Shown: one piece after another, positions 9,222-46,672 of the stretch
Numbering within the stretch: position 1 is the first letter of the stretch
How the letters are laid out: every line of letters begins with the position of its first letter
DNA from: Pristiophorus japonicus
Taxonomy: Eukaryota
Length of the DNA stretch: 64,000 nt
NCBI RefSeq assembly: GCF_044704955.1
Contig: NC_091984.1
Location: forward strand, 146,940,001 to 147,004,000
Direction: 5' to 3'
The notes under the pieces: model-generated
The model's database searches: none
Told to the model about the DNA's origin: nothing
What the model saw: the letters and a program-made list of their open reading frames with translations, nothing else
Position numbers and translations under genes: made by a program

Positions 9222-9555
9222 GCTATTGGTGGACCAATAGGAAGGAGCCATGTTTCCTGGTCCCTATTGGGGGACCAATAGGAAGGAGCCATGCTTCCTC
9301 GTCCATATTGCAGGACAGATAGGAAGGAGCTTAGTTTCCTGGTCTAATTGGAGGACCAATAGAAATGAGCCATTTTTCCTGGTCTCTATTGGGAGACCAA
9401 CAGAAAGGAGCCATGATTCCTGGTCTCTATTGGGGAACCAACAGGAAGGAGCCATATTTCCTGGTGCCTATTGGGAGACCAATAGGAAGGAGCCATATTT
9501 CCTGGTCCCGATTGGGGAACCAATAGGAAGGATCTATGTTTCCTGGTCACTTTTG
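9222..9555 (+). repeat. 41-bp minisatellite, block 1
   Basis: Unit CCAATAGGAAGGAGCCATGTTTCCTGGTCCCTATTGGGGGA, about 8 copies. Confidence 0.9.
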
Positions 9556-12500
9556 GGGAAGTGTTTGCTAGTGCTGTTGGGGAGGAGTTAAACTAATGTG
9601 GCAGGGGGATGGGAACCAATGCAGGGAGACAGAGGGAAACAAAAAGGAGACAAAAGCAAAAGACAGAAAGGAGATGAGGAAAAGTGGAGGGCAGAGAAAC
9701 CCAAGGCAAAGAAAAAAAAGGGCCAATGTACAGCAAAATTCTAAAGGACAAAGGGTGTTAAAAAAATAAGCCTGAAGGCTTTGTGTCTTAATGCAAGGAG
9801 TATCGTAATAAGGTGGATGAATTAACTGTGCAAATAGATGTTAACAAATATGATGTGATTGGGATTACAGAGACGTGGCTCCAGGATGATCAGGGCTGGG
9901 AACTCAACATCCAGGGTATTCAACATTCAGGAAGGATAGAACAAAAGGAAAAAGAGGTGGGGTAGCATTGCTGGTTAAAGAGGAGATTAATGCAATAGTT
10001 AGGAAGGACATTAGCTTGAATGCTGTGGAATCTATATGGGTAGAGCTGCAGAACACCAAAGGGCAAAAAACATTAGTGGGAGTTGTGTACAGACCTCCAA
10101 CCAGTAGTAGTGATGTTGGGGAGGGCATCAAACAGGAAATTAGGGGTACATGCAATAAAGGTGCAGCAGTTATCATGGGTAACTTTAATATGCACATAGA
10201 TTGGGCTAACCAAACTGGAAGCAATACGGTGGAGGAGGATTTTCTGGAGTTCATAAGGGATGGGTTTCTAGACCAATATGTCGAGGAACCAACTAGGGGG
10301 GAGGCCATTTTAGACTGGGTGTTGTGTAATGAGAGAGGATTAATTAGCAATCTCGTTATGCGAGGCCCCTTGGGGAAGAGTGACCATAATATGATGAATT
10401 CTGCATTAGGATGGAGAATGAAACAGTTAATTCAGAGACTATGGTCCAGAACTTGAAGGGTAACTTTGAAGGTATGAGGCATGAATTGGCTACGATAGAT
10501 TGGCGAATGATACTTAAGGGGTTGACTGTGGATGGGCAATGGCAGACATTTAGAGACCGCATGGATGAACTACAACAATTGTACATTCCTGTCTGGCATA
10601 AAAATAAAAAAGGGAAGGTGGCTCAATCGTGGCTATCAAGGGAAATCAGGGATAGTATTAAAGCCAAGGACGTGGCATAGAAATTGGCCAGAAATAGCAG
10701 CGAACCCGGGGACTGGGAGAAATTTAGAACTCAGCAGAGGAGGACAAAGGGTTTGATTAGGGCAGGGAAAATAGAGTACGAGAAGAAGCTTGAAGGGAAC
10801 ATTAAGACGGATTGCAAAAGTTTCTATAGATATGTAAAGAGAAAAAGGTTAGTAAAGACAAACGTAGGTCTCCTGCAGTCAGAATCAGGGGAAGTCATAA
10901 CTGGGAACAAAGAAATGGCAGACCAATTGAACAAGTACTTTGGTTCGGTATTCACTAAGGAGTACACAAACAACCTTCCGGATATAAAAGGGATCAGAGG
11001 GTCTAGTAAGGAGGAGGAACTGAGGGAAATCCTTATTAGTCGGGAAATTGTGTTGGGGAAATTGATGGGATTGAAGGCCGATAAATCCCCAGGGCCTGAT
11101 GGACTGCATCCCAGAGTACTTAAGGAGGTGGCCTTGGAAATAGCGGATGCATTGACAGTCATTTTCCAACATTCCATTGACTCTGGATCAGTTCCTATGG
11201 AGTGGAGGGTAGCCAATGTAATCCCACTTTTTAAAAAAGGAGGGAGAGAGAAAACAGGGAATTTTCGACCGGTCAGCCTGACCTCAGTAGTGGGTAAAAT
11301 GATGGAATCAATTATTAAGGATGTCATAGTAGCGCATTTGGAAAGAGGTGACATGATAGGTCCAAGTCAGCATGGATTTGTCAAAGGGAAATTATGCTTG
11401 ACAAATCTTCTGGAATTTTTTGAGGATGTTTCCAGTAGAGTGGACAAGGGAGAACCAGTTGATGTGGTATATTTGGACTTTCAGAAGGCTTTCGACAAGG
11501 TCCCACACAAGAGATTAATGTGCAAAGTTAAAGCACATGGGATTGGGGGTAGTGTGCTGACGTGGATTGAGAACTGGTTGTCAGACAGGAAGCAAAGAGT
11601 AGGAGTAAATGAGTACTTTTCAGAATGGCAGGCAGTGACTAGTAGGGTACCGCAAGGTTCTGTGCTGGGGCCCCAGCTGTTTACATTGTACATTAATGAT
11701 TTAGATGAGGGGATTAAAAGTAGTATCTCCAAATTTGCGGATGACACTAAGTTGGGTGGCAGTGTGAGCTGTGAGGAGGATGCTATGAGGCTGCAGAGTG
11801 ACTTGGATAGGTTAGGTGAGTGGGCAAATGCATGGCAGATGAAGTATAATGTGGATAAATGTGAGGTTATCCACTTTGGTGGTAAAAACAGAGAGACAGA
11901 CTATTATCTGAATGGTGACAGATTAGGAAAAGGGGAGGTGCAATGAGACCTGGGTGTCATGGTACATCAGTCATTGAAGGTTGGCATGCAGGTACAGCAG
12001 GCGGTTAAGAAAGCAAATGGCATGTTGGCCTTCATAGCGAGGGGATTTGAGTACAGGGGCAGGGAGGTGTTGCTACAGTTGTACAGGGCCTTGGTGAGGC
12101 CACACCTGGAGTATTGTGTACAGTTTTGGTCTCCTAACTTAGGAAGGACATTCTTGCTATTGAGGGAGTACAGCGAAGGTTCACCAGACTGATTCCCAGG
12201 ATGGCGGAACTAACCTATCAAGAAAGACTGGATCAACTGGGCTTGTATTCACTGGAGTTCAGAAGAATGAGATGGGACCTCATAGAAACGTTTAAAATTC
12301 TGATGGGTTCAGAGACGTTAGATGCAGGAAGAATATTCCCAATGTTGGGGAAGTCCAGAACCAGGGGTCACAGTCTAAGGACAAGGGGTAAGCCATTTAG
12401 GACCGAGATGAGGAGAAACTTCTTCACCCAGAGAGTGGTGAACCTGTGGAATTCTCTACCACAGAAAGTTGTTGAGGCCAATTCACTAAATATATTCAAA

Positions 12501-12678
12501 AAGAAGTTGGATGATGTCCTTTCTACTAGGGGGATCAAGGGGTATGGCGAGAAAGCAGGAATGGGGTACTGAAGTTGCATGTTCAGCCATGAACTCATTG
12601 AATGGCGGTGCAGGCTAGAAGGGCCGAATGGCCTACTCCTGCACCGATTTTCTATTTTTCTATGTTTCTATGTTTCTA
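9556..12678 (+). mobile_element. 5'-truncated CR1 LINE (ORF1 end plus disrupted ORF2)
   Basis: Endonuclease and RT ORFs (KFADD), (TTTCTATG)n tail; closely similar to the full-length copy at 42635-47253. Confidence 0.95.
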
Positions 12679-12790
12679 TTACCAGTAGGAAGGAGCCAGG
12701 TTTCCTGGTCTTTATTGGAGGGCCAATAAGTAGGAGCCATGTATGTTGGTCTCTTTTGGGGCACCAATAGGAAGGAGCTATAATTCCTGG
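12679..12790 (+). repeat. 41-bp minisatellite, block 2
   Basis: The same unit resumes right after the CR1 tail. Confidence 0.85.
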
Positions 12791-15096: not shown

Positions 15097-15647
15097 TGTG
15101 GATATCTGAACGGAATATATGGAATTAAGGACAGTAAAGTAAACGGGATATATGAAAATGTATAAGCCATGGAAGAATAGCTGGGAGAATGTCAGATTGC
15201 AAATAGTGCAACATCAGCATAACTAACAGTCTTTCTCAAGGTTTCAAGTCACTAATCCTGCCAATAACATCTAATTGTAACATGAAATAAATCTGCAGAA
15301 TTGCAAGGTCTCAGTTAATAGTCACACCACTAGATTGAAACATTTAGAGGCAATGCTTGAGCTTTCATAAAAACATCTCATATAGATTGACTAATGAGTA
15401 GCTGAGTTAGAATGTCAATCTAATTGTATTTTGTTATCTGATTTCAAAACTGTATAACTGTTGACGCTTTATGATGTAACTTCACCTATCCGTAGGGAGT
15501 GTGTACGCTCTATCCAGAGAGTATATCTTCTGTCTGATAGGTCTTACTGGCCGGTAATAAAGATTGCTTTGTTCAAAGCACAAGAGGTATTCGATTCAGT
15601 AATTTTACTGAACCAGATTGAGGTAAAAGAATCCAGGAATTTACATT

Positions 15648-15665
15648 TGGTGTCAGAAGTGGGAT
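15648..15665 (+). promoter_or_regulatory. Primer binding site, tRNA-Leu
   Basis: TGGTGTCAGAAGTGGGAT, 2 nt after the 5' LTR. Confidence 0.9.
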
Positions 15666-17407
15666 CTCAATGGACGATTGCCGAAAACTTGCGAATTAAG
15701 AGCCAGACTAGCCTTGGACGAGACGAGGGGAAAGTGGCCACTGGAGTGAGTATGATTTCAATACTGCTCCAGTTTCGCCCGGTTTCAAAAGTCTGAGGAA
15801 AGTTTAGCCACTCGCTGGTTCTCAGGTAGTGTCTGAACGAGATCCAGGACAATCTGATGAATACCTTTCAAACGTAGAATAGGGATAGAGATAGGGAAAT
15901 TGCGCGATGACGCAAACCAAGCGGCGACTTGGAAAGATAGTTAGAGCTAGATAGGGATAGATGATCAATCATGGATCCAAAAATGAATAGGAAAGAAAAG
16001 AGACTCTTGTGAATGTCTGTTTAAATGAGAAATGCTTCTGTGATTTTTACTGTAAAAAAAAAGCTGGGGAGTTGTGGTTTGTTTTATCTCAAACAGAATG
16101 AAAGTTTGTTTTAACCCTTCATAGTGTTGTCCTGTATGTGGGAAGTTTAAGAGTGTGAACCTTACTAAAATACTTATATTCGGATGATAAGTTACGGAGC
16201 CAGGAAATGCACAAAGGATAGGTTTGTTAAAAAAAAAAAGAAAAAATGACATGGTCCCGGTGGTTAAAAAAAAAGAAAAACTTGTTGAAAGAAAACATTC
16301 AGAGAAGGCACAGCAAAACAACTGAGATGGATTCAAAAGGATTCAAAAAAAAATTATATTAAATAACACGACCTTGAGGCTGGAACAATTGAGATAACGA
16401 AAAGCAGTCCACAGCCTTTGTGCCAGACTTCTCTCTAGTCATGGAAAAAAAAGTAACGTACTAAATAGGTGCTGAAAGAAAAAAATGTTCTGAGATTTTA
16501 AATTATGGAAAAAATTCCACTGCAGTAAAAAAAAATACAATCACTCCTGTCCAGTTGGCAGAAAAACTCCATTAAATTAGGGCTTTCATTGACTGATTGA
16601 ATTTAAACTGCGCAGTAACGCGAAAGGATAGGGAAATTTGGAAACTGAAAGAAATTAATTGAGGCTCATAAGAAATCAAAATTAGAAAATTAGGCTCACA
16701 GGGAATAAAATGGGGATTTAAATAGAGGATAGGTGTTCAATTCAGGTACGACGTCGACCTTGTATATCACTTGACCCGTCGAGGCTCTGATTGAATTTAA
16801 AAACCCACAGCAACTCGGAAGGTAGGGCCGACGCGAACGTGCAGCGGTGCAAACGACGCGAACGTGCAGCGACACTAATGCGTAGTGACGCAAACGCGCA
16901 GTGACGCAGACGCGCAGTGACGCCGACGCGTAGTGAAGCAGAGGCGCAGCAACGCGAATCGCGAAAGTCAGTGCTAATGTCAGTAAGTCTTTGTAAGTCT
17001 TAAGTGTTTAGAGTTTTAAGTATTTAAATCGCGCGGCGATGCGAACCGCGCGGCGACGCGGGTAAGTGTTAGAAGTCCTTGTTTATCTTTTAAAGTTTTA
17101 AGTATCTTAACTCACGCGGCGACGTGAGCCACGGGTCGACGCGGATTGCGTGGCAACGTGTACTGCGAGGAAATGCGGATTGTGCGGCGACGTGAACTGC
17201 GGGGTGACGTGGGAGTTTTAAGAATCGCGCGGCGACACGAACCGCGCGGCGACGTGGCTAAGTGTTAGCATTAGTAAAGTTTGTTTATTTGGAGTTAGTT
17301 AAAGTCAGTGTTAGTTTCTGTAAAGTCTGTGTCTATTTTTAAGTTTGTTTAAATTGCACGACGACACGAACGCGTAACGACACGGTAATACGCGAGGCAG
17401 TGTGAAA

Positions 17408-18740
17408 ATGGGTAATCAGTTGGATAAAACAACGGATGCGGATAGTCCGCTACAAAAGCTATGTGAGGAATTCCCTGAAAGAGCTGAAGACTTTAGAAAA
17501 TTATCAGGAGCCCTAAACAAATTATTGGGAGATGATCAATGGCCTCTAGGTGGCACTAGAAGCATAGAGGTAGTAAAAAAATAAGCACAGGGATTGTTAA
17601 AAAAAAAATTAATTAAAAGATGCATCACTTCTGTCAAGTTGGCAAACAAATGCTATTAAATTAGGACTTGCATTGACAGAGGGAACACATTTTAAAACTG
17701 TAGACGTCTTTAAAAAAAAAAGAATGTGCGCACGAGAAACTTACTAAGAGATCCTCTGGGACCTCTGAGAAAGGTATTGACCAACTACGTAGCAAAAATG
17801 GCTGGCTTTGTGTTAACCGAGGCTGATGATGAAATTGATGAGTGACCACTGACTCAGCGCCCAACGGCGCCTCCCGCACCCCCTGGCCTCTTGCTCCAGT
17901 CCTCTTCCCAACACCCTCCACCTAACACTCCGGTAAAAAGAGTTAGGAACAACCCCATATCACCAAAGCAACAAACCCAAACTGACTCCTCATCCTCTGA
18001 TAGCGATTCGGATCCCCAGTTTACAAGCAATATAGCCGAAAAAACCAGATCTCATACTCGAAAGGGCAGAACTATATCTCGACATCACAGACAGTCCCGT
18101 AAATCTTCTAGTCAATCTACCAGTCCAAGTTGTGAAAGACATAGCAAACACCCCCGCCGATCAAGACGCAGAACTGTCAAGCAGTCAGACAGCTCCGAAA
18201 CATCCTCCGACCTAGAAATGATTTCCAAGATCCCAAAGTCCCGACACCAATTCCCTGTCAGACCAATGCCAAACCCTGATGCACAACAAGCTGCAGACCA
18301 CCCCACTATCCGGACAAATGGAGAGGACAGTTAGATATTATTGGCAGGAAAAGAAAAGGGAGGGGGGAGGTGCGCCCCCAACCCGGGTCAAGACTGAATA
18401 CGTGACTAGAAAGGAAGAGCCATCTCGGGAGGAAGGATCAATAGAACCGTAGTGTTGCATACAGGATTGGATGGATAAGCAAGGATACGGTTATACTAAA
18501 CAACCAAACGGCCCGAGCCCTGCTAATAAACCTCCCTATTGTCCCCGGCATGGTATGGGAAGAGGCCGGGACTGGGTAAGAGGAATTGACTGTTTTAATT
18601 GTGGGCAGGAAGGACATTGGAATAAAAATTGCCCCTACCGTCAGCATGGAAAAGGAAGAGGAGGGGGGCAAGGGGGGAGAGGAGGACCTTACACTAACTT
18701 CTCCCAGAACAACCCATTTGGTCAATTGTCCCCCGATTGA
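17408..18740 (+). pseudogene. gag: ERV B gag, with frameshifts and capsid largely missing
   Basis: MGNQ myristoylation-type start, WPLGGT matrix motif, CCHC knuckle CFNCGQEGHWNKNC. Confidence 0.85.
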
Positions 18741-21140
18741 CTACGCAGCTTGATTGTGCAGGGATCCTCCCCGGACGACGAACCCATTCTGAATGAGTGG
18801 CAACCCTTTTTGATAGATACGGGAGCCTTCTTGTCTTCTGTACAATCAAAGCTTAAACTCCCTGCCTCTACTGAAACACAGGAACTTTCAGGATTCCTGG
18901 GACAAATCTCGACATTCCCAGTGTCAGAACCGGTTAAAATGGGTTACCAGGAAGAATCGGTGGAACATCGAGTTGTTATCACAACCAATCTGGACTGTAA
19001 CTTGATGGCTAGAGACCTCCTCTGCAAATTCCAGTTGCATTTGAAGTGTGGAGATGATGGGATTATTGTAAAACAGGAAACCCTTAAGCGGCAGTATTAT
19101 ACCACTAGAACCCCTCAGTGGTGGTCTCTGGACCTGCCGCAGGCACCCTATCACGTGACCCTAGCATACGATCCCAGTGGAAAGAATCGGGACCTGCAGA
19201 ACTTTTATCAGGATCACGAAGGGGAAGTGAAGGGAATTCTATTAAGGGCTAGAGTGATTGGACTGGAAAGAGAGGCAGATTTTGTGGAAGTGGATAAGAA
19301 TCTGTGGAAACAGCCCCTAACAATGGCACCGCATATTGCTCGTGAAGTATTAGCCCCTCACCATGCTAAAGATTTGGGAGTTATGGTACGCAAGGCCATA
19401 GATGAGGCTGACCCGACCAGCCGGGATGTGCAAATTTCATGGGGACCCCGAGAAGGTCTTAACGACTCTACAGCATCATACTGGCTCGGACATACCTGAC
19501 TATGTGGATCCTCATGTGTGGGCAGAGAACCCCTCCCAAGTGGGTTATACTCCCATTGATCCGATTGAGATCCCAGTGCAGGGCAATGTGGACTGGCCCT
19601 CTATCCGACAGAACCCACTGAAATCACAGGCAATCCTAAACTAACCTTTCGGCACTGTACTGTAATTAATCCGGCCTGTTTTCTTACTGAGCCACCCCAA
19701 GATGAGGAAGAACCCAGTCATGATTGCTTATCTTTAATTTAAGAGGCCACATCAGTCAGGGAAGATTTAGTTGATGTACCAATGGAAGATCCAGACTGTA
19801 TTCTTACTGAACCAACCCAAGATGAGGAAGAACCCAGTCATGATTGTTTATGTATGTTGACGGAAGTACTTCTATTAATCCAGAAGATACACGAATCTCA
19901 GGATACGCCATAGTAAACCAGGAAAATCAGGTCTTGGAATCTGCCGCTTTTGAAACCGCCTATTCTGCTCAACAAGCTGAACTATTCGCCCTCACCCAAG
20001 CCTGTATCTTGGCCAAAGATCTCAAAGTCAATATCTATACCGACTCTAGGTATGCCTTTGGGGTGGCCCATGATTTCGGACAATTATGAAAAAATAGGGG
20101 ATTCCTAACCTCACAGGGGAATGAGATATCTCATAAACAGTTAGTATCTGATTTGTTACAAGCCCTCATGTTCCCCAAACGCATTGCCATTGTCAAATGT
20201 ACCGCCCATACTACCGGAAATTCTCTGGTTGATATAGGGAATCGTTGTCCTGACCAAGAGGCCAAACAGGCCTCTCGTGACCAACAGATGGTAGTGCCCA
20301 AAATTATGAGTCAGACTAAAAATCCTGCGAAGGATAAGTTAGCCTCGGAAAAACCAATGCCAACCATCCAAGATGTTATAAAAGCACAGGAGGACGTTCC
20401 TGAAAAAGATAAACTGTTGTGGAAATATTATGCATGTACTTATGACAATGTTTCTAAACTCTGGACCACTCCCGCGGAACAGACTTGCATGTCTGACAAG
20501 TTGGCTCTGAGTTATTGAATGTATGCATTTTGCTACTCATTGTGGAGCAAGGACCACGAGTGACACACTTTTGGCTACTTGGGGGCACCCTAGACTCCAG
20601 GCGCTCACCCAGAACATCAGTAGTCGTTGCCTGGTTGGCCAGCAACATAATCCAGGGAAGGGAGTCCCCTGTGATTGGGGTAAAAAGCCCCTACCCGAAG
20701 GTCCCTTTGAGACATTTCAGTTGGACTACATTGAGTTGCAAAAAGTTCAGTGTTACAAATATGTGTTAGTAATAGTAGATGTGTTTAGCAGATGGATTGA
20801 AGCCTACCCTAACCTGGACAATAAGACTCAGACTGTTGTTAAGGTGTTAATGAGGGAAATTGTTCCTAGATATGAGATCTCAGCTAGACTGTTGACCACC
20901 TATGTTCTTTCTCTGACTCAGGCTCTGCGACTAGTTCACAACCAGGTTCAAGATGCTCACCTCGACCTCCCAGTTTTACCCGAATTGTCCCTCGTGGCAC
21001 CAGGGAAGTATGGATTCGGAAGGGATTAGAGCCACAATGGGAGGGTCCTTTTCAGGTGTCACTCACTACCCCCACTGCAGCCAAGGTAGAGGGGAAAAGT
21101 GCCTGGGTTCACCTGCACCACTGCAAGCTCATCACCATTT
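18741..21140 (+). pseudogene. pol: ERV B pro-pol remnant: protease, 2H-like insert, RT nearly all deleted, RNase H, partial integrase
   Basis: FLIDTGA; YVDGS...AQQAEL...IYTDSRYAFGVAH; LVIVDVFSRWIEAYP. No LPQG or YxDD found. Confidence 0.9.
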
Positions 21141-21337
21141 AAACAAATTTTGCTGGTTAGTCTAATTCCTGTTTCTGTTCCAGATCTCCTCTTCCCCATA
21201 GCTGAACAAGGCAGTTGAAGGAGGATCAGTTTGAACTTTTACCCGTAAGACAGCCAAATACACTGACGGAGACCTGAAGAAGGGAAACGGGAAAACAGAA
21301 CTCTTTTTATCAGCTAAATAATTGGACTATTTATAAG

Positions 21338-22076
21338 ATGAGACTGTGTCTGTATGCCACTGTCTGCATAATAGTGTTGTTATATGACAGTTTTGGCGCA
21401 CGGGAAGGAAGACAAAGGCGAGAGCTCCATGTAAACACCTTTTTGTATATATCTTACGTTTATGTGGAAAAAGGGCACTTCACTAGATGCTGGGTGTGTT
21501 CACATATCCCTATACATTCCAAAGGGGGAATTCCTTTGCGCACCGTTCCACTGACCCTAACTGAAACTGTTAGATGGATTCAAAGAAACGATATTGGAAC
21601 AGGTAGCTAACCGCACTGCTGAGGCTCTGGAGGGCATCACAGCTGAAATGGTAGTGATAAGGACCATAGCATTACAAAACCGAATGGCCCTCGATTACCT
21701 GTTAGCTGAGAAAGGGGGAACGTGTGCCCTGATAGGATCTGAATGTTGCACTTACATTCCTGATAGTTCAGAAAACATAACCCACCTTGCCGATCACATA
21801 AGGAGGGAGGTGAAGAAGTTATCCACACCAGCAAAAGAACTTAGCAGGTTTGATTGGTTTCTGGGTGGATCTTGGAGATCCTATCTAATAATAATTACCT
21901 GCTGTTTGATTGTTGGTTGCCTTAACCTCTGCTGTAAAGTAATGATGACAAGGTTAGCAGACCCTCTTGTGGTCAAGGGTTCCCGGGTTATGATCCAACA
22001 AACTAGAGAACTACTCAACAATAATATGATTCTGGAAAAGGAGTGTGAACGGATGAATGCAATACTCCAAGAATGA
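21338..22076 (+). pseudogene. env: ERV B gamma-type env, most of SU and the fusion peptide deleted
   Basis: Acceptor at 21183, signal peptide, CWVC motif, then ISD LQNRMALDYLL and CX6CC (CALIGSECC), and a TM segment. Confidence 0.92.
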
Positions 22077-22664
22077 TCCTAAATGTTATCATAGAATGAT
22101 AAAAGGAGGGATGTGGATATCTGAACGGAACATATGGAATTAAGGACAGTAAAGTAAACAGAATATATGAAAATGTATAAGCCATGGAAGAATAGCTGGG
22201 AGAATGTCAGATTGCAAATAGTGCAACATCAGCATAGCTAACAGTCTTTCTCAAGGTTTCAAGTCACTAATCCTGCCAATAACATCTAATTGTAACATGA
22301 AATAAATCTGCAGAATTGCAAGGTCTCAGTTAATAGTCACACCACTAGATTGAAACATTTAGAGGCAATGCTTGAGCTTTCATAAAAACATCTCATATAG
22401 ATTGACTAATGAGTAGCTGAGTTAGAATGTCAATCTAATTGTATTTTGTTATCTGATTTCAAAACTGTATAACTGTTGACGCTTTATGATGTAACTTCAC
22501 CTATCCGTAGGGAGTGTGTACGCTCTATCCAGAGAGTATATCTTCTGTCTGATAGGTCTTACTGGCCGGTAATAAAGATTGCTTTGTTCAAAGCACAAGA
22601 GGTATTCGACTCAGTAATTTTACTGAACCAGATTGAGGTAAAAGAATCCAGGAATTTACAACAC

Positions 22665-23594: not shown

Positions 23595-23674
23595 TGACGT
23601 GGCTTTTTCTGGGTGAAGACATTTACATACTGAGGGATGGGCAGTGAGACTCTCACAGGCTGCAGGTTTATAAA
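23595..23674 (+). promoter_or_regulatory. Ig light-chain promoter: CRE-like TGACGT, variant octamer ATTTACAT, TATA box
   Basis: TGACGT 23595-23600; ATTTACAT 23621-23628 (one mismatch to ATTTGCAT, light-chain orientation); TTTATAAA 23667-23674; ATG at 23734. Confidence 0.7.
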
Positions 23675-23733: not shown

Positions 23734-23782
23734 ATGATTTCACCCATCCAGCTGATCTGGCCTCTGGCATTCTGCGTCGCAG
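23734..23782 (+). CDS. Ig kappa-type light-chain leader exon (MISPIQLIWPLAFCVA/G)
   Basis: 49-nt phase-1 exon ending AG|GTACC; hydrophobic signal typical of shark NS4/kappa leaders. Confidence 0.92.
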
Positions 23783-23969
23783 GTACCAATCTCTCTCCTT
23801 CCACGTTTAATATCTCCCTGCTATCGATTTCTGTCCAACTCTACTGACCAGTGATTGAAGGGCAAATGCTGACACTAGAGGAGAGCTCAGTGTCTCGAGC
23901 AATCTCTCATTTTACAGCGTCTTTCTGTGACAGTGTTTACTTCACTTTCTTTCCCCATTTCGCCCTCAG

Positions 23970-24297
23970 GTATCAGTGGGGACATCATCATGACCCAGGC
24001 TCCCCCGGTGCTGTCAGTGAGTGAGGGACAGACTGCAACCATCACCTGTACTGCCAGTGCATCCGTTAGCAATTATGTTGCTTGGTACCAGCAGAAAGCT
24101 AGGCAGAAACCCACTCTGCTGATCTATGCAGCAACATCACTTTTCACTGGAACCGCCAATCGCTTCACCGGCAGTTACCAGTCCAACACGTTCACCCTGA
24201 GCATCAGCAACGTGAAGAGCGAGGATGTCGCAGACTATTACTGTCAGCAATCTGAGAGCTACCCTCACGTTCGGTAAAGGAACCAAGCTCAGATTGA
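23970..24297 (+). pseudogene. IGK: Pre-joined V-J exon of a kappa (NS4/type III) light chain, junction out of frame
   Basis: Polypyrimidine-CAG acceptor at 23969; DIIMTQ...TITC...WYQQ...LLIY...EDVADYYCQQSESYP; then one extra C (24266) and J ACG TTC GGT AAA GGA ACC AAG CTC AGA TTG (TFGKGTKLRL), donor A|GTAAGT at 24298. The V frame hits TAA at 24275. Confidence 0.92.
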
Positions 24298-24418
24298 GTA
24301 AGTAAACCCTGATGTTCCGTTATTAACACTTTAAATACTGAATTTTTTAAAGTGACAAATGCTGAATATGTGAAGGTGTTAGTTTACATATGATTACACT
24401 CGATCTTACCGTCTTTCC

Positions 24419-24822
24419 TCATCTAAATCTATCAGCATAACCCTCGATTCCCTTCTCCCTCATATCGCTGTCTAGCCTCCCCTTAAATACATCGATACTA
24501 TTCACTTCAATCACTCCCTGTGGTAGCGAGTTCCACATTCTCACCACTTGCTGGGTAAAGAATTTTCTCCTGAATTTCCGATTGGATTTCTTGCTGACTA
24601 TCTTACATTGATGGCCTCTAGTTCTGCTCTTCCCCACAAGTGGAAACACTCTCTCTGTATCCACTCTATCAAAACCTTTCCGAATGTTAAAGACCTCTAT
24701 CAGGTCACCCCTCAGCCTCAAGAGAAAAGAGCCCCAGCCTGTTCATCCTTTCCTGATATGTACACCCTCGCATTTCTGGTCCCATCCTTGTAAACCTTCT
24801 CTGCACCCTCTCCAGTGCCTGT
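24419..24822 (-). mobile_element. CR1 3' fragment
   Basis: RLRGDLIEVF...FFTQ..V..WNSLP ORF2 C-terminus. Confidence 0.85.
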
Positions 24823-25382
24823 GTATGGGTTATATAATATGGTGGGGAGCTGCGGTGAATGAAAGGGTTAATTGAAGAGTGCTGTGTATGACAGGGAGCC
24901 CGGCTGTATTCCTTGACCCACATTCCCCCTTCACCCAGCAAAGTATAAGTGACGAACTGTTACCCACCGTGTGGAGGAGATCTGGACGTTGGCACACTGC
25001 GGTCCCATCCCTGCACCATCCCCGGAAATCGCTCCCGAGCCTCCTGCCTGTCTCAGTGTGACAGACACGGTGTGTGAGACACGGGCAGAGTGTGGGTGTG
25101 AGTGAGTGAGCTCGCTGGGGGCAGTCTGTGCTCCTGTCACAGTCTCTGATATAACTGAGCTCAGCCTCAGCACACTGACACTCCCGAGGTCCTGCCTCCC
25201 CCAACTCCAACTCTGATATTTCCAGCCCCCGCTCACCTCCTGTCCAACTTCTGATCGCAAACAGGGGCAGCAGGGCTCGCAATCCGGCAGCTGCAGTGCT
25301 CCAGGGTTGTGGGGAGACTCTCAGTTGCTGTTTCTGTGGCTCGAGTTCAGGCCGATATTTATCCCTCGAACTACATCGCTTA

Positions 25383-29060: not shown

Positions 29061-31863
29061 CCGCGGAGGGGAGGGTTCTCAGGGGACCAGGGTGGGGGAT
29101 GGCGGTCGCTGAGTGGGCTCGGGGACCAGGGCACCAGCCAGTCGCCACTCTGCACACACTCTGTTCCCTCTGTGTCTCAGTCCAGTGTTGCAGTGAGGAG
29201 TTTAGGATCTGAGGCTCAGGCTGGTTCTCCGGCACCATCAACGCCCTGTTGGGTAAGGGTCTTAAGGGTTAAGAACATAAGAAATAGGAGCAGGAGTCGG
29301 CAACCTGGCCCCTCAGCCTGCTCCGCCATTTAATAAGATCATGGCTGATCTGATCTTGGACATAGCTCCACTTCCCTGCCCGCTCCCCATAACTCTTTAT
29401 TCCCTTATCGCTCAAAAATCTGTCTATCTCCACCTTAAATATAATCAAAATCCAGCCTACACAGCTCTCTAGGGCAGAGATTTCCACAGATTTACAAGCC
29501 TCTGAGAGAAGAAATTCCTCCTAAACTCAGTTTTAAATGGACAGCCCCTTATTCTGAGACTATGACCCCGAGTACTATTTTCGCCTATGAGTGTAAATAT
29601 CCTCACTGCATCCACCTTGTCACCCTCTCATTATCTTATATGTTTCGATAAAATCACCTCTCGTTTTTCTGAACTCCAATGATTATAGGCCTAACCTACT
29701 CAACCTATCCTCATAAATCAACCCCCTCATCTCCAGAATCAATCTAGTGAACCTTCTCTGAACTGCTGCCAATGCAAGTATATCCTTTCTTAAGTATGGA
29801 TACCAAAACTGTACACAGTACTCCAGGTGTGGCCTCACCAATACCCTGTATAGATGTAGCAGGGTTTCTCTGCTTTTATACTCTATCCCCCTTGCAATTA
29901 AGGCCAAATTTCATTTGACTTCCTGATTATTGCTGTAACCGCATACTAACTTTTTGTGTTTTATGCACAAGGTCCCCTTTGCAATTTTTCTCCATTTAAA
30001 AATTAATTTGCTTTCCTCTTCATTCTGCCAAAGTGGAAAACCTCACATTTTCCCACATTACACTCTGTAAGGGGTGGTTTGCAGGGGGTCAGCTTTCCCT
30101 TCTGACCTTATATGAACGGTTCTGAATCGCTCCCACACCCTTGGTTCTAGACACTGGAATTATGAAGGGACTGTGACAGACTTGGACAGACAATCGGTTT
30201 CAAGGTCGGAAGCAGGTATGTCTTTATTGTGTTTACAAAGAAGTAAAAGGCATACCTTTAATAACACACACAGACCAATACACACTGAGGGGTACAACAC
30301 ATTGAATAAATTGTACAATTACAGTCTGTGGGGAAAAGAATACAGCTTAAACTCTAAATGGGGTAAAAAGGCGAATGCAGATACATTTACACAAGTTATC
30401 CCAGCCTCCCTCCTCCCAATTCCCCTAACTAACTAAGTTATAGCTCTGTGGGGTTCAGGGGCTATACTCACCAATCCCTTTTGACAGCTGCCCGTGAATC
30501 GTGGTTTCGGGGTTCGCTGCACTTGGCCTTCTAGGCGAGCCGTACCCCGGTCGGAGGAGAGGACTTCGGACTGCCTAGTCTTCGGTTGGGGTGTGCCCGT
30601 TGATGCGGTAAGTTGCGTTTTGGATGTATGGGGTAAGTACCCACTTTCTTTGGTTAGGAATAGTTTAGTTAGTCCCTTTTGGTAATTTCTCACCCGTTGG
30701 TCATTCCGAAGTAGATTGTAGAGTGGAAATAAATGTCGATTCTTCGGTTTTTGTTGAGTTGGTTTTGGTTGGTCGTTTCGCTGGTTGTGGTGGCCCGGGT
30801 TGTCAATTTGGTTGCTGACAACCTTCCGTTTCGTGGACCTCGTGCTCGGTCAGTTCTTGATGAATTCTAGTAGTTTCCTTCACTGCTCCATTTCTTCACT
30901 CCCCACCTCCGGCTGTCTGTGTCTGTGTTCCAGTCTGTGCTCTGCTTCTCTCCTGTCTTCTGCTAGTTTCTGTGTTCTGCTAGTCTGCGTGCTGCTCCTT
31001 GCTGGTCTTTCCTTGTAAAACTGGGGGATAGATATATTCCAAAAAAAGGCTCTGTTATCTCCCATCAAATCTCTTGGGCTCTGTTTAAACTGTACTGTCC
31101 ACTGATTTTCAAATGTCTCCTTTGTCAGCAGTAACTCGATTAGGGTGTGAGAATGTGCTCTCACTGGTTTTGCATTGTTTTAGAATTGTCCAGTTTCTTG
31201 ACCATGATTTCCATTGTGCTTGATTGGGTAATTCGATTATCTCTTAGAGGGTGAATAGTTCCCCCAGACAGTCTGGGGTCTTTAATACACGAATTTGGCC
31301 CCACCTCCTGTATTTGGTAACTCTCTTTTTTTTTGCAGCCAAAATGTTGTAGAATCTTAAAATTGATATGCTCCTTCCCATAGATGTTTAGGGGATCTCA
31401 AGCTTCTGTAATTTAGGTCCATTTTGAATTCCCTTTCCTATGAGTCCAAACACTGGGGGGGGGTCTCCATGAATGCATCCCCTTTTATCCCCCGCAGGCT
31501 TCGTCTGCCCCTTTAAACTCATTTTAAAAGCCCAGAAAGGGATTCTTCTCCTCTGTAGGGGAAAGGTACCTGGAATCTTTGCGAGATATTGGTAAATTCT
31601 ACATTCCCCCCTGTGATACCATATCACTTATGGTATCATTCTTCGAGGTGAGCAAAGTTCCTGACTCCCAAGAGATAACCTTCCCCATAAATTAGCTAAA
31701 CTAATACCCAAAATGCATTACACTTATGCAACATATCCATAGATGCACACTTTTCCCTTTACAGGTACAAACCTTTTACATTTATACCCTCCCAGCTTGG
31801 AGGGGGTTCAATCACTACAATTGTATTTCAGCACAGTTACATTTCATTTCAGTTACATTATAT

Positions 31864-33708
31864 TCACCAGCCGGTGTCATAGGAGTCCCAGAACTTTCCC
31901 ATGCGGGCACCTTCTTTGGCCAGTTTGTCAGCCTGTTGGTTTCCCTCTGCACGGGGTTCGGTTTTTGAATGGGCCTTCACCTTATGTATGTCGACCTTTT
32001 CCTCTTCCCCCACTGCTGTCATGATTTTCTCCAGCAGGGGCTTGATTGCCAGGGGTCTCCCATCAGCGGACGTGTATCCGCGACGGGACCAGATAGCCAG
32101 GTACTCCGTACATGAATTGCAGGTGAACATACTGTCCGAGCAAATCATGTACGGGGTAGGGAATTCCTCGGGGTGGGTCACCACGTACATTATGACGGAC
32201 AGTTCAGCATGCTGGACGCTCATGGTGCTGGGGAGCTTGATTGCCAGGGCAATACCTGCCCTTGGGTCATAGACTCCGCACCCAGTGAGTCGCTCGTCAG
32301 CAGATACCGTGCTGGACCCGTCCACGTAGATGTCCCGGCCTGTAGGGTGTAACCCCGCCCGAAGGCCAATGTTCACCTCCCATACCCCTTCTATGGAGCA
32401 CCTGTGGGCTTTCCCTGGATAGATTAGGTTGGCTGCGAGCCTTGGCTCGCGGGGGCCTTCTACTCTGAGGTCCATCTGGGAGAGGAGCAGGGTCCAGCGA
32501 GCAATGCGGGCACTGCTCACCGTCCCGTCCTTAATCCTCCCATCTAGGAGCATCTGAGTAGGTGTGTGGTGGGTTAGGAGTGTTAGAGGAGACCCTCTTG
32601 TGAAGATCAAGGATCTTTTCACTGCCCAATGTGTGGCTAGGAGGTGTCTCTCACAGTTGGAGTACCCCTTCTCCACATCTGTGAGGATCCTGGAGGAGTA
32701 AACCACCGGTCTCAGTTGGCCGTGCCGCTCTTGAAGCAGCACTGAGCTCAAACTGTCCCCGCTGGCTGCCACCTCCAGGAAAAACTCCTTTCCTACATCT
32801 ATCGCTCCTAAGGCTGGCGCGGTCTGCAAGTCCTTCTTGAGCTGATTAAATGCTGCCTCGCAACCCTCATCCCAGTCCCACTCTACACCCTTGTGTAGGA
32901 GCCTGAGCAGAGGGGCTGCGGTGGCTGCATAATCCTCAATGAAGTCTCTGCAGTACCCGGTGAGTCCGAGAAAGGATCTTACCCCTGTCACTGTGTTGGG
33001 GGCTGGTAACTCCTGTACTGCCTCCCTTCTAGCCTTATCTATGGCCCTTTCCCCAGCGCGCACAGTCAGCCCCAGGAATTTGACTTCTTTCTGGCCGATC
33101 TGTGCCTTCTTGGGATTTACTTTAAACCCTTCTTCTTTTAGCAGCTCCAGCAGCTCAGCCAACAGTGGGCCATGCTCCTCCCCCTGATCGGTGAACAGAA
33201 GCAGGTCATCCACATACTGCACCAACTGCTGGGGTCTGCTAAAGCCCTTTAAACAGTTCGCCATACATTGGTGAAAAATGCTGGAGCTGTTGTGGAAGCC
33301 TTGGGGAAGACAGTTCCACGTGTATTGTTGGCCCTTAAAAGTAAAGGCGAACTTGTACTGGTCCTCCCGTTTTAAAGAAATGGACCAGAACCCACTTGAT
33401 ATATCCAGCACCGTGAAAGTGGTCGCGGATGCTGGAATACTCCCTATGAGATCCGCTACGGCTGCTACAGTGGGTGCACAGGCAGGGATATTCTTATTTA
33501 GTACTCGATAGTCCACGGTGGCCCTCCATGAGTTGTCCGGTTTCTTAACCGGCCACAGTGGAGAGTTCACATGGATTGATATCGGTCTTAACACCCCTTG
33601 CTCTACCAGTGATCCCAACACCGTTGTCAGGTCTGCGTCTGCCTCCCTGGGGAAGTTATATTGCTTTTGTGGCCGGGTCATGGGGTCCCCTACTATACTA
33701 ACTTCCAC
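31864..33708 (-). CDS. pol: RT, degenerate RNase H (tether) and second RNase H; open for 614 aa
   Basis: NSPLWPVKK, LDISSGFW, LPQGFHNS, YVDD; a Ty3-like RH lacking catalytic Asp residues; then YVDGS...HAEL...SDS...KVKAH...GNQQAD. Confidence 0.92.
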   Translation of the reverse strand: MEVSIVGDPMTRPQKQYNFPREADADLTTVLGSLVEQGVLRPISIHVNSPLWPVKKPDNSWRATVDYRVLNKNIPACAPTVAAVADLIGSIPASATTFTVLDISSGFWSISLKREDQYKFAFTFKGQQYTWNCLPQGFHNSSSIFHQCMANCLKGFSRPQQLVQYVDDLLLFTDQGEEHGPLLAELLELLKEEGFKVNPKKAQIGQKEVKFLGLTVRAGERAIDKARREAVQELPAPNTVTGVRSFLGLTGYCRDFIEDYAATAAPLLRLLHKGVEWDWDEGCEAAFNQLKKDLQTAPALGAIDVGKEFFLEVAASGDSLSSVLLQERHGQLRPVVYSSRILTDVEKGYSNCERHLLATHWAVKRSLIFTRGSPLTLLTHHTPTQMLLDGRIKDGTVSSARIARWTLLLSQMDLRVEGPREPRLAANLIYPGKAHRCSIEGVWEVNIGLRAGLHPTGRDIYVDGSSTVSADERLTGCGVYDPRAGIALAIKLPSTMSVQHAELSVIMYVVTHPEEFPTPYMICSDSMFTCNSCTEYLAIWSRRGYTSADGRPLAIKPLLEKIMTAVGEEEKVDIHKVKAHSKTEPRAEGNQQADKLAKEGARMGKFWDSYDTGW

Positions 33709-34285
33709 CCCCCGTTACCCTACCAAAGTCATGTTTGTGGGTGGCGAATGCTGCAAGGTGTGCCCGTACATAAGCCTGGTACTCCACTGGGGTGTTACTG
33801 ACCAGTAATTCCAAGTCATAACCCTCCTTTGGCTTCACGGTACACAATGTTTCCTTGGCCCCTTTTTCTGGGATCACTGCCACCTCACCTTCCCTGTCAG
33901 TCACTATGGCGCCCCATAGACAATGGTTCCTGAGATCCACTAGGATCTGGTGGCCAATGATAAAATCAGCTCCCAGGATCCCTTTTCCCTTCTGCTGTCA
34001 TTTCATCAGGACACACTTCCATTTGGTTTTGAGTGTACCTAACTGAATGGTGAGCGGGATGGAAAATGAACCAGTTTGCTCATTGCCTGTGAACCCCACT
34101 AGACTGTACGGGACCCCGTTCGATAGAGGTGAGGTAGCTGGGTTATCTGCATATACAAGGGTGCTGGAAGCAGCAGTATCTAGCAGGTAGGTCCCTTTCA
34201 CTTTCTCCACCTCCATCGTAACGCACGGTCTCTTCCAGGCATCGTACTCTAGGGAACACAGGTGCACAGGCTGCACTGGCCTTAG
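33709..34285 (-). pseudogene. pro: Aspartic protease of C (one stop, frameshift before RT)
   Basis: YLLDTAAS and ILGADF motifs. Confidence 0.8.
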
Positions 34286-36046
34286 TCATGCATCTGGGTG
34301 GGTTGGAGCAGATGGTTTTACCGTACTGACTGCTGGACCGGTTGCGATGGCGACTGCTCCCTGTCCGTTTATGAGTGTCTGTAGGGCGGCTACGAGTGTC
34401 TCATATGTGTCGGGTGTTCCTGCCCTGGCCTTACAGGCTGGGGCTGGAGTGGCCTTTCCCTTAGTCTCTTTCCAGGGGTTCCTACAATCCTTCCTCCAGT
34501 GCCCACTTTTCCCACACCCAAAACACTCGCCCCCTTTGTGGGGAGGGTTCCCACCTTCCTGATGCAACTCTCTCTTGCCTTAGCTGGGTTTAATCTCATG
34601 GACCCTCCCTTTAGAGGAGGGCTCCTCTGTCCCTCTACTGTTCCGGTAAGCCAGTGTCAACTGTCTGACCACTGTCTACTCGGTGGTTCTGGGATCTCTT
34701 GGATCGAACCAGACCTTGGCTTTTGCCTTTACTCCAGGTAAGCTGTTTGCCACCAGGCTGCGGAGCCAGTGAGCCAGCTCGTTAGGGTTCAGGTGGGCCC
34801 GGTCAAGAACCCCACTGCAGGCCCTTTCGTAGACCGGCCACAACCTGTCGACGAAAGCCTGTGGAGTCTCCCCATCGAGCTGCACTGTTTTCTCCACTCG
34901 GGAGAAAGGACTCCCGTCGTTCATACCCATGGCCTCTAGAACCTCCTCCTTAACCGTAGCGTACGTGTTTCGCCCCTTTCTGCTGTCTGCAGAGAGGGAA
35001 TGGCACAGCTTGGTGTCTAGTGAGAAGAGCAACAGCTTAGCCTGCTCCGAATCATCGCACCCGTTAATATCCCCTGTGTGTTCCACTTCCAGGAAGTGTA
35101 CCGAGGGATCCCCCTGTTGGGTGAGCTTACTTAGGTGACCTATCATAGCCCTCAGTTTTTGGGTGTCGTGAGGGACTACGAAGTTGCTTTCTAGGGGTCC
35201 TGCTGCCCCATTTGCATCAGGCGGGCCAAACTTCTGCTGCCGGACCGGGTGCATTGGCCCTGGTTCCGGCCCTTCTTGTATTGGTTCGCCCTCTTCCCCC
35301 TGCTGCCAAGCCGAGTTAAAACTCGGGGCTGCCGGTGTTGGTCGTTTGCAATCCTTGCCTGCCCCGCACTCTGGCTGACACCCCTGCTGCTCCGGGCCGT
35401 TCCTGGGAGCTGCAGGCGGTGACTGAGGGATTTCTCCTTGCCCAACCAGGTATTCCTGGGCTAAACCCGGGTTTAACAGGCACACCATGCCTTTAGCCCG
35501 GGATAGAGCAAGGTTCAAGCTTTGGATCTGCTGCTGGCGGGGGCCGTGGTCTCCTGCCTCAAATTCCCTGGTACTGGCTACCTTATAGGCTACCTGAATG
35601 TCTCTTACCCTCTCCCCGTACTGTTTAACTTGCTTGGCGAGGCAGGAATTCTCTTCCCACAATGCCCCTTCGCTATTCTTGGCTTCAATAATCTGACACT
35701 GTAAAAGGCCCAGTTGGGTTTTGTGCCTTTCTTTTGTGAGCTCTCTACTTTCCTTTAACTGTCCCACCTCTGTCCACAGCCTTTCCCCGACTGTGGCCCT
35801 TGCGCTGGACCTCTCTTCTGCCTGTCTCAATATTCCCTTTAATTTCTCATTCTCCTCATCTAGAAGCCGGATCTGTTGCTGAAGGCAAATTAGCCAAATG
35901 GCCTTCTCTATCGACCTTTTATGGTCCTTGCTTTCGGTCCATTGAGCTGCAGCATCTTCTGGATGCTCAGCATACAATAGATCGAGTACCCACTCCTTAG
36001 CCACATTTACCCTCTTAAACACATACGAGGAAATCCCCTCTTCCAT
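34286..36046 (-). pseudogene. gag: gag of C with long N-terminal coiled coil, capsid-like region and CCHC knuckle
   Basis: 456-aa ORF with a heptad-rich region; after a stop and frameshift, CFGCGKSGHWRKDC. Confidence 0.85.
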
Positions 36047-36099
36047 TTTACTTCATTTCCTGAAACCAGTCTCTCTCTTATCACGTCCCTTGTACCAGT

Positions 36100-36117
36100 G
36101 TCCCATCTAGGTCGCCA
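36100..36117 (-). promoter_or_regulatory. Primer binding site, tRNA-Arg (CCG-type)
   Basis: TGGCGACCTAGATGGGAC, one mismatch to the complement of the tRNA-Arg(CCG) 3' end as recalled. Confidence 0.75.
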
Positions 36118-37767
36118 TTATGTAAGGGTTGGTTTGCAGGGGGTCAGCTTTCCCTTCTGACCTTATATGAGCGGTTCCGAATCGCTCCCACACCCTTGGT
36201 TCTCGACACTGGAATTATGAAGGGACTGTGACAGACTTGGACAGACAATCGGTTTCAAGGTAGGAAGCAGGTATGTCTTTATTGTGTTTACAAAGAAGTA
36301 AAAGGCACACCTTTAATAACACACACAGACCAATACACACTGAGGGGTACAACACATTGAATAAATTGTCCAATTACAGTCTGTGGGGAAAAGAATACAG
36401 CTTAAACTCTAAATGGGGTAAAAAGGCGAATGCAGATACATTTACACAAGTTATCCCAGCCTCCCTCCTCCCAATTCCCCTAACTAACTAAGTTATAGCT
36501 CTGTGGGGTTCAGGGGCTATACTCACCAATCCCTTTTGACAGTTGCCGGTGAATCATGGTTTAGGGGTTCGCTGCACTTGGCCTTCTAGGCGAGCCGTAC
36601 CCCGGTCGGAGGAGAGGACTTCGGACTGCGTAGTCTTCGGTTGGGGTGCGTCCGTTGATGCGGTAAGCTGTGTTTTGGGTGTATGGGGTAAGTACCCACT
36701 TTCTTTGGTTAGGAATAGTTTAGTTAGTCCCTTTTGGTAATTTCTCACCCATTGGTCATTCCGAAGTCGATTGTCGAGTGGAAATAAATGTCGATTCTTC
36801 GGTTTTTGCTGAGTTGGTTTTGGTTGGTCGTTTCGCTGGTTGTGGTGGCCCGGGTTGTCAATTTGGTTGCTGACAACCTTCCGTTTCGTGGGCCTCGTGC
36901 TCAGTCGGTCCTTGATGAGTTCTTGTAGTTTCCTTCACTGCTCCATTTCTTCACTCCCCACCTCCGGCTGTCTGTGTCTGTGTTCCAGTCTGTGCTCTGC
37001 TTCTCTCCTGTCTTCTGCTAGTTTCTGTGTTCTGCTAGTCTGCGTGCTGCTCCTTGCTGGTCTTTCTTTGTAAAACTGGGGGATAGATATATTCCAAAAA
37101 AAGGCTCTGTTATCTTCCATCAAATCTCTTGGGCTCTGTTTAAACTGTACTGTCCACTGATTTTCAAATGTCTCCTTTGTCAACAGTAACTCGATTAGGG
37201 TGTGAGAATGTGCTATCAGTGGTTTTGCATTGTTTTAGAATTGTCCAGTTTCTTGACCATGATTTCCATTGTGCTTGATTGGGTAATTCGATTATCTCTT
37301 AGAGGGTGAATAGTTCCCCCAGACAGTCTGGGGTCTTTAATACACGAATTTGGCCCCACCTCCTGTATTTGGTAACTCTTGTTTTTTTTTGCAGCCAAAA
37401 TGTTGTAGAATCTTAAAATTGATATGCTCCTTCCCATAGATGTTTAGGGGATCTCAAGCTTCTGTAATTTAGGTCCATTTTGAATTCCCTTTCCTATGAG
37501 TCCAAACACTGGGGGGGGGGGGGTGGGGGGTCTCCATGAATGAATCCCCTTTTATCCCCCGCAGGCTTCGTCTGCCCCTTTAAACTCATTTTAAAAGCCC
37601 AGAAAGGGATTCTTCTCCTCTGTAGGGGAAAGGTACCTGGAATCTTTGCGAGATATTGGTAAATTCTACAACTCCATCTGCCAATTTTGTGCCCATTCAC
37701 TTAGCTGGTCTATATCCCTTTACAGACTATTTGTGTCCTCCTCACAATTTGCTTTCCCACCCATCTT

Positions 37768-42625: not shown

Positions 42626-42740
42626 ACGTAGTTACATAGAAACATAGACATAGAAACATAGAAAATAGGTGCAGGAGTAGGCCATTCGGCACTTCTAGCC
42701 TGCACCGCCATTCAATGAGTTCATGGCTGAACATTCAACT

Positions 42741-45647: not shown

Positions 45648-45724
45648 CTCCTTTCTGTCTTTTGTTTTTGCCTCCTTTTTGTTTCCCTCTATCTCCCTGC
45701 TTTGGTTCCCATCCCCCTGCCATA

Positions 45725-46672
45725 TTAGTTTAACTCCTCCCCAACAGCACTAGCAAACACTCCCCCGAGGACATTGGTTCCGATTCTGCCCAGGTGCAGA
45801 CCGTTCGGATTGTACTGGTCCCACCTCCCCCAGAACCGGTTCCAATGCCCCAGGAATTTGAATCCCTCCCTGCTGCACCATTGCTCAAGCCACGTATTCA
45901 TCTGAGCTATCCTGCGATTCCTACTCTGACTAGCACGTGGCACTGGTAGCAATCCCGAGATTACTACTTTTGAGGTCCTACTTTTTAATTTAGCTCCTAG
46001 CTCCTTAAATTCATTTCGTAGGAACTCATCCCTTTTTTTACCTATGTCATTGGTACCAACGTGCACCACGACAACTGGCTGTTCTCCCTCCCTTTTTAGA
46101 ATGTCCTGCACCCGCTCCGAGACATCCTTGACCCTTGCACCAGGGAGGCAACATACCATCCTGGAGTCTCGGTTGCGGCCGCAGAAACGCCTATCTATTC
46201 CCCTTACAATTGAATCCCCTATCACTATCGCTCGCCCACTCTTTTTCCTGCCCTCCTGTGCAACAGAGCCAGCCACGGTGCCATGAACTTGGCTGCTGCT
46301 GCCCACTCCTGATGAGTCATCCCCCTCAACAGCACTCAAAGCAGTGTATCTGTTTTGCAGTGGGATGACCACAGGGGATCCCTGCACTACCTTCCTTGCT
46401 CTACTCTTCCTGCTGGTCTTCCATTCCCTCGCTGGCTGTGGACCCTTCTCCTGCGGTAAGACCTACTCGCTACACGTGATACTCACGTCATTCTCAGCAT
46501 CGTGGATGCTCCAGAGTGAATCCACCTTCAGCTCCAACTCCGCAACGCGGACCGTCAGTTGCCGGAGGTGGACACACTTCCCGCACATGTAGTCGTCAGG
46601 GACACTGGTGTTGTCCCCGTGTTCCCACATGGTACAGGAGGAGCATATCACATGACCGAGCTGTCCTGCCAT
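45725..46672 (-). pseudogene. CR1 ORF1: zinc finger, leucine zipper and SGNH/GDSL esterase, one in-frame TAG
   Basis: CSSC...CGKC, LRQLTVRVAELELKV, IGDS, HVGTND, GLHL. ORFs 46463-46672 and 45725-46387 are in frame across TAG 46463-46465. Confidence 0.9.

Follow-up and report, generated by a model that had tools for sequence, protein, structure and literature searches.

Structure, class and reading frame of the gene

How does a light-chain gene come to carry its V and J segments fused in the DNA and set in different reading frames? Such a gene lies in the genome of the shark Pristiophorus japonicus, within the window analysed here, a stretch of 64,000 nucleotides (contig NC_091984.1, positions 146,940,001 to 147,004,000 of the forward strand; coordinates below are those of the stretch), and the frameshift could have been made by the joining itself, by a later indel in a join that had been productive, or by a somatic event or an error that entered the assembly.

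The gene lies on the plus strand and begins with a leader exon (23734..23782; ATG at 23734; sequence MISPIQLIWPLAFCVA) that is identical at 17 of 17 positions to the horned shark models P0002, P0012 and P0014. It is followed by a GT-AG leader intron of 187 bp (23783..23969), the bounds of which are backed by a spliced contig of a relative (run X6) that skips exactly 187 nt. A single exon from 23970 to 24297 carries V and J together. It consists of the V-kappa segment (23970..24263, the end of the leader and V up to CDR3), which is open and matches the V-set domain (E 4.9e-16), the coding joint (24264..24266), which is a CTC overlap common to the unjoined V end and J start, and the J-kappa segment (24267..24297, TFGKGTKLRL), followed by the splice donor GTAAGT (24298..24303). 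The relative's spliced contigs depart from J into C-exon letters at 24297/24298, the predicted donor. The Cys codon is found at 24242-24244 and the junction CCT-C-ACG at 24263-24269, and the spliced reading ends in QQSESYPHVR*, with a premature TAA at 24275-24277 in the V frame, four codons past the joint and 20 nt ahead of the J donor. J is therefore out of frame at +1, as a preliminary description of this DNA had stated, and a functional pre-joined light chain is rejected, V and J not being in frame.

We found an octamer-like promoter motif (ATTTACAT, 23621..23628, plus strand) and a TATA box (23669..23674, plus strand) with a PstI site just upstream at 23660, and promoter homology reaches about 170 bp upstream. 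The octamer variant ATTTACAT was rejected as a lesion, since it is a family form common to bamboo shark models: the stretch reads IYI in the read-through bamboo-shark models P0018 and P0021, and its position has no variant letter among the relative's contigs listed.

Upon scanning both strands of the window for RSSs (spacers of 12/23 ± 1, at most 3 mismatches in all), none was found near the gene; the whole window holds three weak matches, at 2387, 3953 and 63109, the nearest of which is more than 19 kb away. Behind the donor, some 100 bp of the 3' flank of J, with homology to paralogues, is retained (24304..24398, plus strand), beyond which two paralogue contigs carry other letters and the homology stops. 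Because the intron, the promoter, the J donor and this flank are kept, the fusion took place at the DNA level and not by retroposition, and the same parts (leader intron, J donor, J flank) lead us to reject a processed Ig pseudogene; the fusion without RSS, the retained leader intron, promoter and J donor, and the DNA recombination had all been described correctly beforehand. The published nurse shark NS4 J primer has a perfect site at 24270, and the primer-to-primer length here is 552 bp.

By its leader, V and J sequence the gene is a shark kappa (NS4/type III) light chain, the isotype first assigned to it. Among longer proteins, 25 of 27 matches belong by sequence to the shark NS4/type III class, with 62-90% identity over the matched part; the best is a Pristiophorus japonicus model (90%), followed by kappa chains of Squalus, catshark, horned shark and basking shark. 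Additionally, the V end of an unjoined paralogue carries a heptamer, a 12-nt spacer and a nonamer, which is the 12-spacer RSS of the class; on the J side just 30 letters of the paralogues' RSS are visible, too few for a spacer length. A near-length protein search (7 matches among 9 candidates) gave no protein with a similar ending. The closest kappa models P0001, P0002 and P0027 are named 'lambda-1 light chain-like' by their source, their leader, V and C being of the kappa class, and many shark models splice through the RSS.

The joint and the unjoined ends

Eight public runs contain part of the stretch, none of them reaching half of the 74 words (best 0.32), nor listed as RNA, and four were compared, all consisting of contigs of one relative. 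Over promoter, leader and intron, the relative's main paralogue path agrees with the window at 98% of sites (6 differences in 372; 8 in 435). Split paralogues exist in this material. The window's own allele is absent among the pieces listed, which bears neither way, as contigs drop rare variants.

Among the pieces listed, the V end of unjoined paralogues reads CCTCTA and then the RSS (4 contigs of run X3), and the J start reads from the RSS into GCTCACG (2 contigs of X1 and 3 of X3); loose V ends break off behind 24266 and loose J ends begin before 24264. Set against these ends, a comparison that the preliminary description had proposed, the window's junction is V through CTC followed by J after CTC, with no N or P bases and a total loss of 6 nt, counted over 27 nt of V end and 7 nt of J head, both RSSs and the spacer being gone. 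Both ends stop inside the coding flanks, 2-5 nt from the V heptamer and 1-4 nt from the J heptamer. Trimming to a 3-nt overlap accounts for the entire joint; the split ends used here are those of the relative's contigs (about 98% alike upstream) and not of the ancestor of this locus.

We enumerated joins with trimming of 0-8 and 0-7 nt and no N or P bases, which gave 72 trimming pairs and 56 distinct products. A 3-nt homology occurs in only one of the 56, which is the observed junction, and 4 of the 72 pairs yield it; plain trimming would reach this overlap with a chance of 2-6%, a figure that is only suggestive of overlap-guided joining. The CTC triplet falls on codon positions 2-3-1 of V but 1-2-3 of J, which puts a join on it out of frame by construction. 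Since the junction is an exact V/J overlap with no N or P bases, the frameshift was probably created by the join.

We consider it likely that this copy goes back to a germ-line RAG-type join on the 3-nt overlap, which was never productive, and that it is now in decay. A kappa V-J-C minicluster would have been cut at both RSSs by a RAG-type activity in a germ cell or early embryo, and its coding ends joined without TdT additions through pairing of their common CTC; as the triplet stands in different codon positions, J would have come to lie in the +1 frame, with a stop four codons on. Microhomology-guided joining of this kind dominates where TdT is absent (PMC10322711). The gene would have been a pseudogene from birth, spreading or persisting by drift and gathering unselected substitutions since, and its C exon may also have been lost from the joined copy. 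We infer, in other words, a germ-line origin with RAG as the nuclease and TdT absent, followed by a neutral history.

Other probable joined genes in the comparison material

Run X6 holds spliced contigs though it is not on record as RNA. One spliced contig of this run skips the 187-nt intron and has a joint that is in frame and 2 nt longer. Record 20 is aligned over 24224-24297 with 7 differences and 0 gaps and then continues into C-exon letters; its V belongs to a different paralogue, with 5 differences listed at 24234-24261, and its joint has the length seen in the window, hence the same wrong frame. The same variant letters occur in the DNA run X3 with from_end values of 16, 18, 20 and 25 and no indel listed. 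This value is the count to the aligned end, as confirmed on X1 record 8, and it would place a contig from 24237 to at least 24285. Such a contig covers 30 letters of V and no fewer than 19 visible letters of J, which falls below the 31-letter bridging rule, and two of the seven differences of record 20 are missing from the X3 listing, the difference table being incomplete. Position 24237 lies 30 nt ahead of the base where split and joined forms begin to differ, an offset that we take to fit branching in a 31-mer graph.

A joint of the window's length on a second V paralogue is probably present in the relative's DNA as well, and record 20 suggests either a second joined, transcribed, out-of-frame gene of another V class or a recurrent somatic product. 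Records 19 and 20 of run X6 carry two different C-exon starts after J, so that at least two kappa clusters are transcribed in the sample.

In the epaulette shark (Hemiscyllium ocellatum) model P0017, V is followed directly by RSVKEP, a reading of J in the -1 frame; this protein model, alone of its kind among the 34 proteins compared, probably represents another out-of-frame joined kappa gene that is unannotated. Three further protein models, P0015, P0020 and P0024, have the appearance of kappa genes joined in frame. It is conceivable that germ-line joining of kappa genes is recurrent in this lineage and steered by one off-frame 3-nt overlap, with clusters independently fixed with an identical frameshift, a proposal that we place slightly short of an even chance.

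State of the copy and the possibility of a later indel

A non-productive join and a later indel in a productive one had both been proposed for this gene, and the paralogue ends favour the former. For the latter, the join would first have been in frame, on a 2-nt CT overlap with a CDR3 ending in P-L-T, and a 2-nt slippage in the short CT run, or another single indel, would have followed. Such a path is short: of the 19 in-frame products without N bases, 7 could give the observed junction by one indel, and among them is the 2-nt-homology join, by one 2-nt slip; it requires, however, two events where one is enough, and the same junction length in the second V class would call for the slip to have happened twice or for gene conversion. 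In-frame joined genes do occur, as P0015, P0020 and P0024 appear to show and as four of the six nurse shark joined NS4 genes do (PMC2193156).

V has no stop and no indel before the joint. At S7A, G41R, R54L, S59A and Q79K, the window's residue is found in none of the 25-26 relatives at those sites, and 5 of 55 conserved V sites are replaced, compared to 0-3 in 25 other models (mean 1.24; Poisson P 0.009; P0027 excluded for its mis-modelled N-terminus). The CDR3 residues S91/E92 were rejected as private lesions, QQSES being also present in P0015 and P0031. Against the relative's contigs, replacement and silent changes stand at 5:3 without S91/E92 and at 7:3 with them, and the former is not different from the neutral 3.4:1 (P 0.39; 8 V changes, a small number). 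No phase of purifying selection is visible in these small counts, which again argues against a formerly productive gene, and we regard the later indel as unlikely.

The remark that the gene had no other lesion thus held for stops, indels and splice sites, but not for the five replaced residues. Nor did tblastn, a pattern search or an HMM of 24 C regions reveal a C exon in the 39.7 kb downstream, the HMM search having had no separate positive control. The paralogue sequence after 24398 and the C-exon start likewise have 0 matches in the window at 3 mismatches. The C exon may have been lost or may lie beyond the window's end; the usual J-C distance was not found in print.

The changes are unevenly spread, with 7 of 101 sites in the J flank unlike all contigs listed there and 5 of 380 in the upstream part. 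The paralogue contigs differ from the window in the J flank by 7/76 to 13/80. A special cause for the excess was rejected, since they also vary among themselves there, and so was an enrichment of changes at CpG (4/15, P 0.085).

Elements surrounding the gene

Throughout the window, which is shark DNA, LINEs and LTR elements are abundant, and 62% of the 39.7 kb downstream of the gene is repeated within the window, being largely mobile elements. Just behind the J flank lies an old 3' fragment of a LINE (24436..24814, minus strand), which we take to be of the CR1 type and which matches the window's other LINE copies at 66-76%; a full-length LINE copy at 42741-45749 has RT and endonuclease domains. 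Upstream, a young endogenous retrovirus (15097..22660, plus strand) ends 1.07 kb before the kappa ATG. Its LTRs (15097-15645 and 22112-22660) are 99.1% alike, and its protease, integrase and env fragments are split over several ORFs.

We also observe an LTR element at 30066-37670 (minus strand) with 1.55-kb terminal repeats that are 97% alike. One of its ORFs, of 616 aa, encodes RT/RNase H and has two RNase H matches, and another, of 458 aa, has no Pfam match. The LINE copies at 42636-46462 (minus strand) and 9555-12679 (plus strand) are 95.9% alike over 3.1 kb, and one of the two retains a 1002-aa endonuclease-RT frame with an upstream GDSL-esterase-like ORF. An ORF run at 4299-6258 (plus strand) resembles a broken viral envelope-type gene, with no Pfam match in the three pieces scanned. 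Transposase fragments of the DDE_Tnp_4 family, presumably Harbinger-type, are found at 51113-51974 (minus strand), and a long degenerate tandem array at 52800-55700 reads on the minus strand as repeats of MGDQWAINGRS. Finally, two GC-rich pieces at 24830-25380 and 29063-29269 are single-copy in the window and have no Pfam match; they might be what is left of the J-C intron, or an enhancer.

Germ line, soma and other origins

A somatic join, that is, a non-productive and possibly hypermutated B-cell rearrangement, could have entered the assembly, or the frameshift could be a consensus error. Shark hypermutation, as described for TCR alpha, is marked by WRC/GYW enrichment and by 38-51% of changed bases lying in tandems (PMC5931798). 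In this gene, WRC/GYW hotspots account for 4 of 15 G/C changes against a background of 30% (P 0.70; small counts), which is no bias. Tandem hypermutation is called to mind by the adjacent change pairs at 24310-11 and 24353-54 in the J flank, a part that also carries more changes than the upstream one; adjacent pairs account for 6 of the 22 scored differences, one pair being probably two events, and the apparent tandem at 24100-01 seems to be split among paralogues, which speaks against a somatic source. The differences reach the promoter and the 5' UTR (five fall in the promoter, 5' UTR and leader intron), and there is a structural change in the flank, neither of which suits a somatic origin. 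The same junction length in the spliced contig could be a recurrent lymphocyte product, but an allele from a single cell should not win the consensus in the middle of a 64-kb stretch. Base-calling error is unlikely for an exact V/J overlap that recurs in independent data. Overall, a somatic or erroneous junction seems improbable to us.

The spacer between V and J might also have been taken out by a RAG-independent deletion between two chance CTC triplets, since microhomology is a mark of general end-joining repair too. Ends within 2-5 nt and 1-4 nt of the two heptamers, across a V-J spacer of about 500 bp (the nurse shark figure; PMC2193156), have instead the precision of RSS-directed cuts. 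We regard such a deletion as extremely improbable. It is scarcely credible that the frameshifted gene is kept for a function, be it as the source of a secreted protein of V alone lacking the J strand, as a regulatory transcript or as a donor for conversion, given that five conserved sites bear radical or unusual replacements and the replacement:silent ratio looks neutral; this holds even with an intact promoter, leader and splice sites, a paralogue whose same-length joint is spliced to C, and a stop 20 nt before the last junction, a position from which decay is often escaped.

In a bolder version of the germ-line join on the CTC overlap, at least one gene of this sort would yield a transcript that evades decay through its late stop and encodes a secreted chain of V alone, lacking the J strand, as a shark counterpart of VpreB; we hold this to be very improbable. 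Lee and colleagues proposed such an origin for VpreB without giving an example (PMC2193156).

Comparison with known germline-joined genes

In the nurse shark, about 50 NS4 genes include six that are joined, four of them in frame, and R6 and R19 are pseudogenes (PMC2193156). Out-of-frame joining is therefore less of a surprise than the preliminary description implied: R19, a germline-joined NS4/kappa gene published in 2000, has one extra CDR3 base, which was left out to restore the frame in the Fig. 4 legend (Lee, Fitch, Flajnik, Hsu 2000; PMC2193156). The nurse shark germline joints have little sign of TdT and represent at least five independent joins, and lengths are about 550 bp for joined NS4 genes and about 1,078 bp for most split ones (PMC2193156). 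The same picture of germline-joined genes emerges from PMC2193153, PMC5192425 and PMC12227049.

R19 and R6 share with the window gene the isotype, the primer sites, the joined product of about 550 bp, the kept octamer, the lack of an RSS remnant and the little sign of TdT, the leader intron measuring 186 bp in nurse shark NS4 and 187 bp here; NS4 also has a PstI site between octamer and leader, as at 23660 (PMC2193156). They belong, however, to another shark lineage, and R19 is marked with stop codons and R6 with many disruptions, whereas the window's V has no stop or indel before the joint (PMC2193156). In its passages on the joints, PMC2193156 accounts for them by trimming and P bases and not by microhomology or overlap, in contrast to the overlap seen here.

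The in-frame joined NS4 genes R4, R7, R18 and RE18, the lambda genes, all of which are joined, and the joined sigma-2 genes have V and J fused in the DNA with a leader intron and promoter, as here (PMC2193156; PMC5192425). Such in-frame genes can make a light chain, and R4 and R18 are expressed in pups, whereas the window gene stops four codons past the joint (PMC2193156; PMC5192425). P0017 resembles the window gene in fusing V to a frame-shifted J, but in the -1 frame and with a C exon in the model; no publication was found that treats it as a joined gene.

In teleost TCR alpha, microhomology-directed V-J joining needs the absence of TdT, and a displaced overlap leads to stereotyped out-of-frame joints; there, too, joint letters can be assigned to V or J and N bases are lacking (PMC10322711). 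That process is somatic, takes place in T cells and has its overlap normally in frame, whereas here an Ig light chain, apparently in the germ line, has its longest overlap off-frame (PMC10322711). No paper was found on joined kappa genes in this lineage, nor on a germ-line joint explained by microhomology, in a search that scarcely covered the subscription literature, including later nurse shark light-chain work.

Taken alone, the window copy adds a further pseudogene to a kind already published. It is an old question whether the pre-joined antibody genes of sharks are adaptations or accidents, and a join that began out of frame and yet persists in the genome would imply that no selection acts on germ-line joining and that its products can survive through drift. 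The overlap model, furthermore, predicts a germ-cell junction spectrum without N bases in which the longest overlap is favoured. By every feature testable here, the window gene belongs with the germline-joined NS4/kappa genes, of which the out-of-frame kind was already known, and the microhomology explanation would be a modest addition to that kind.
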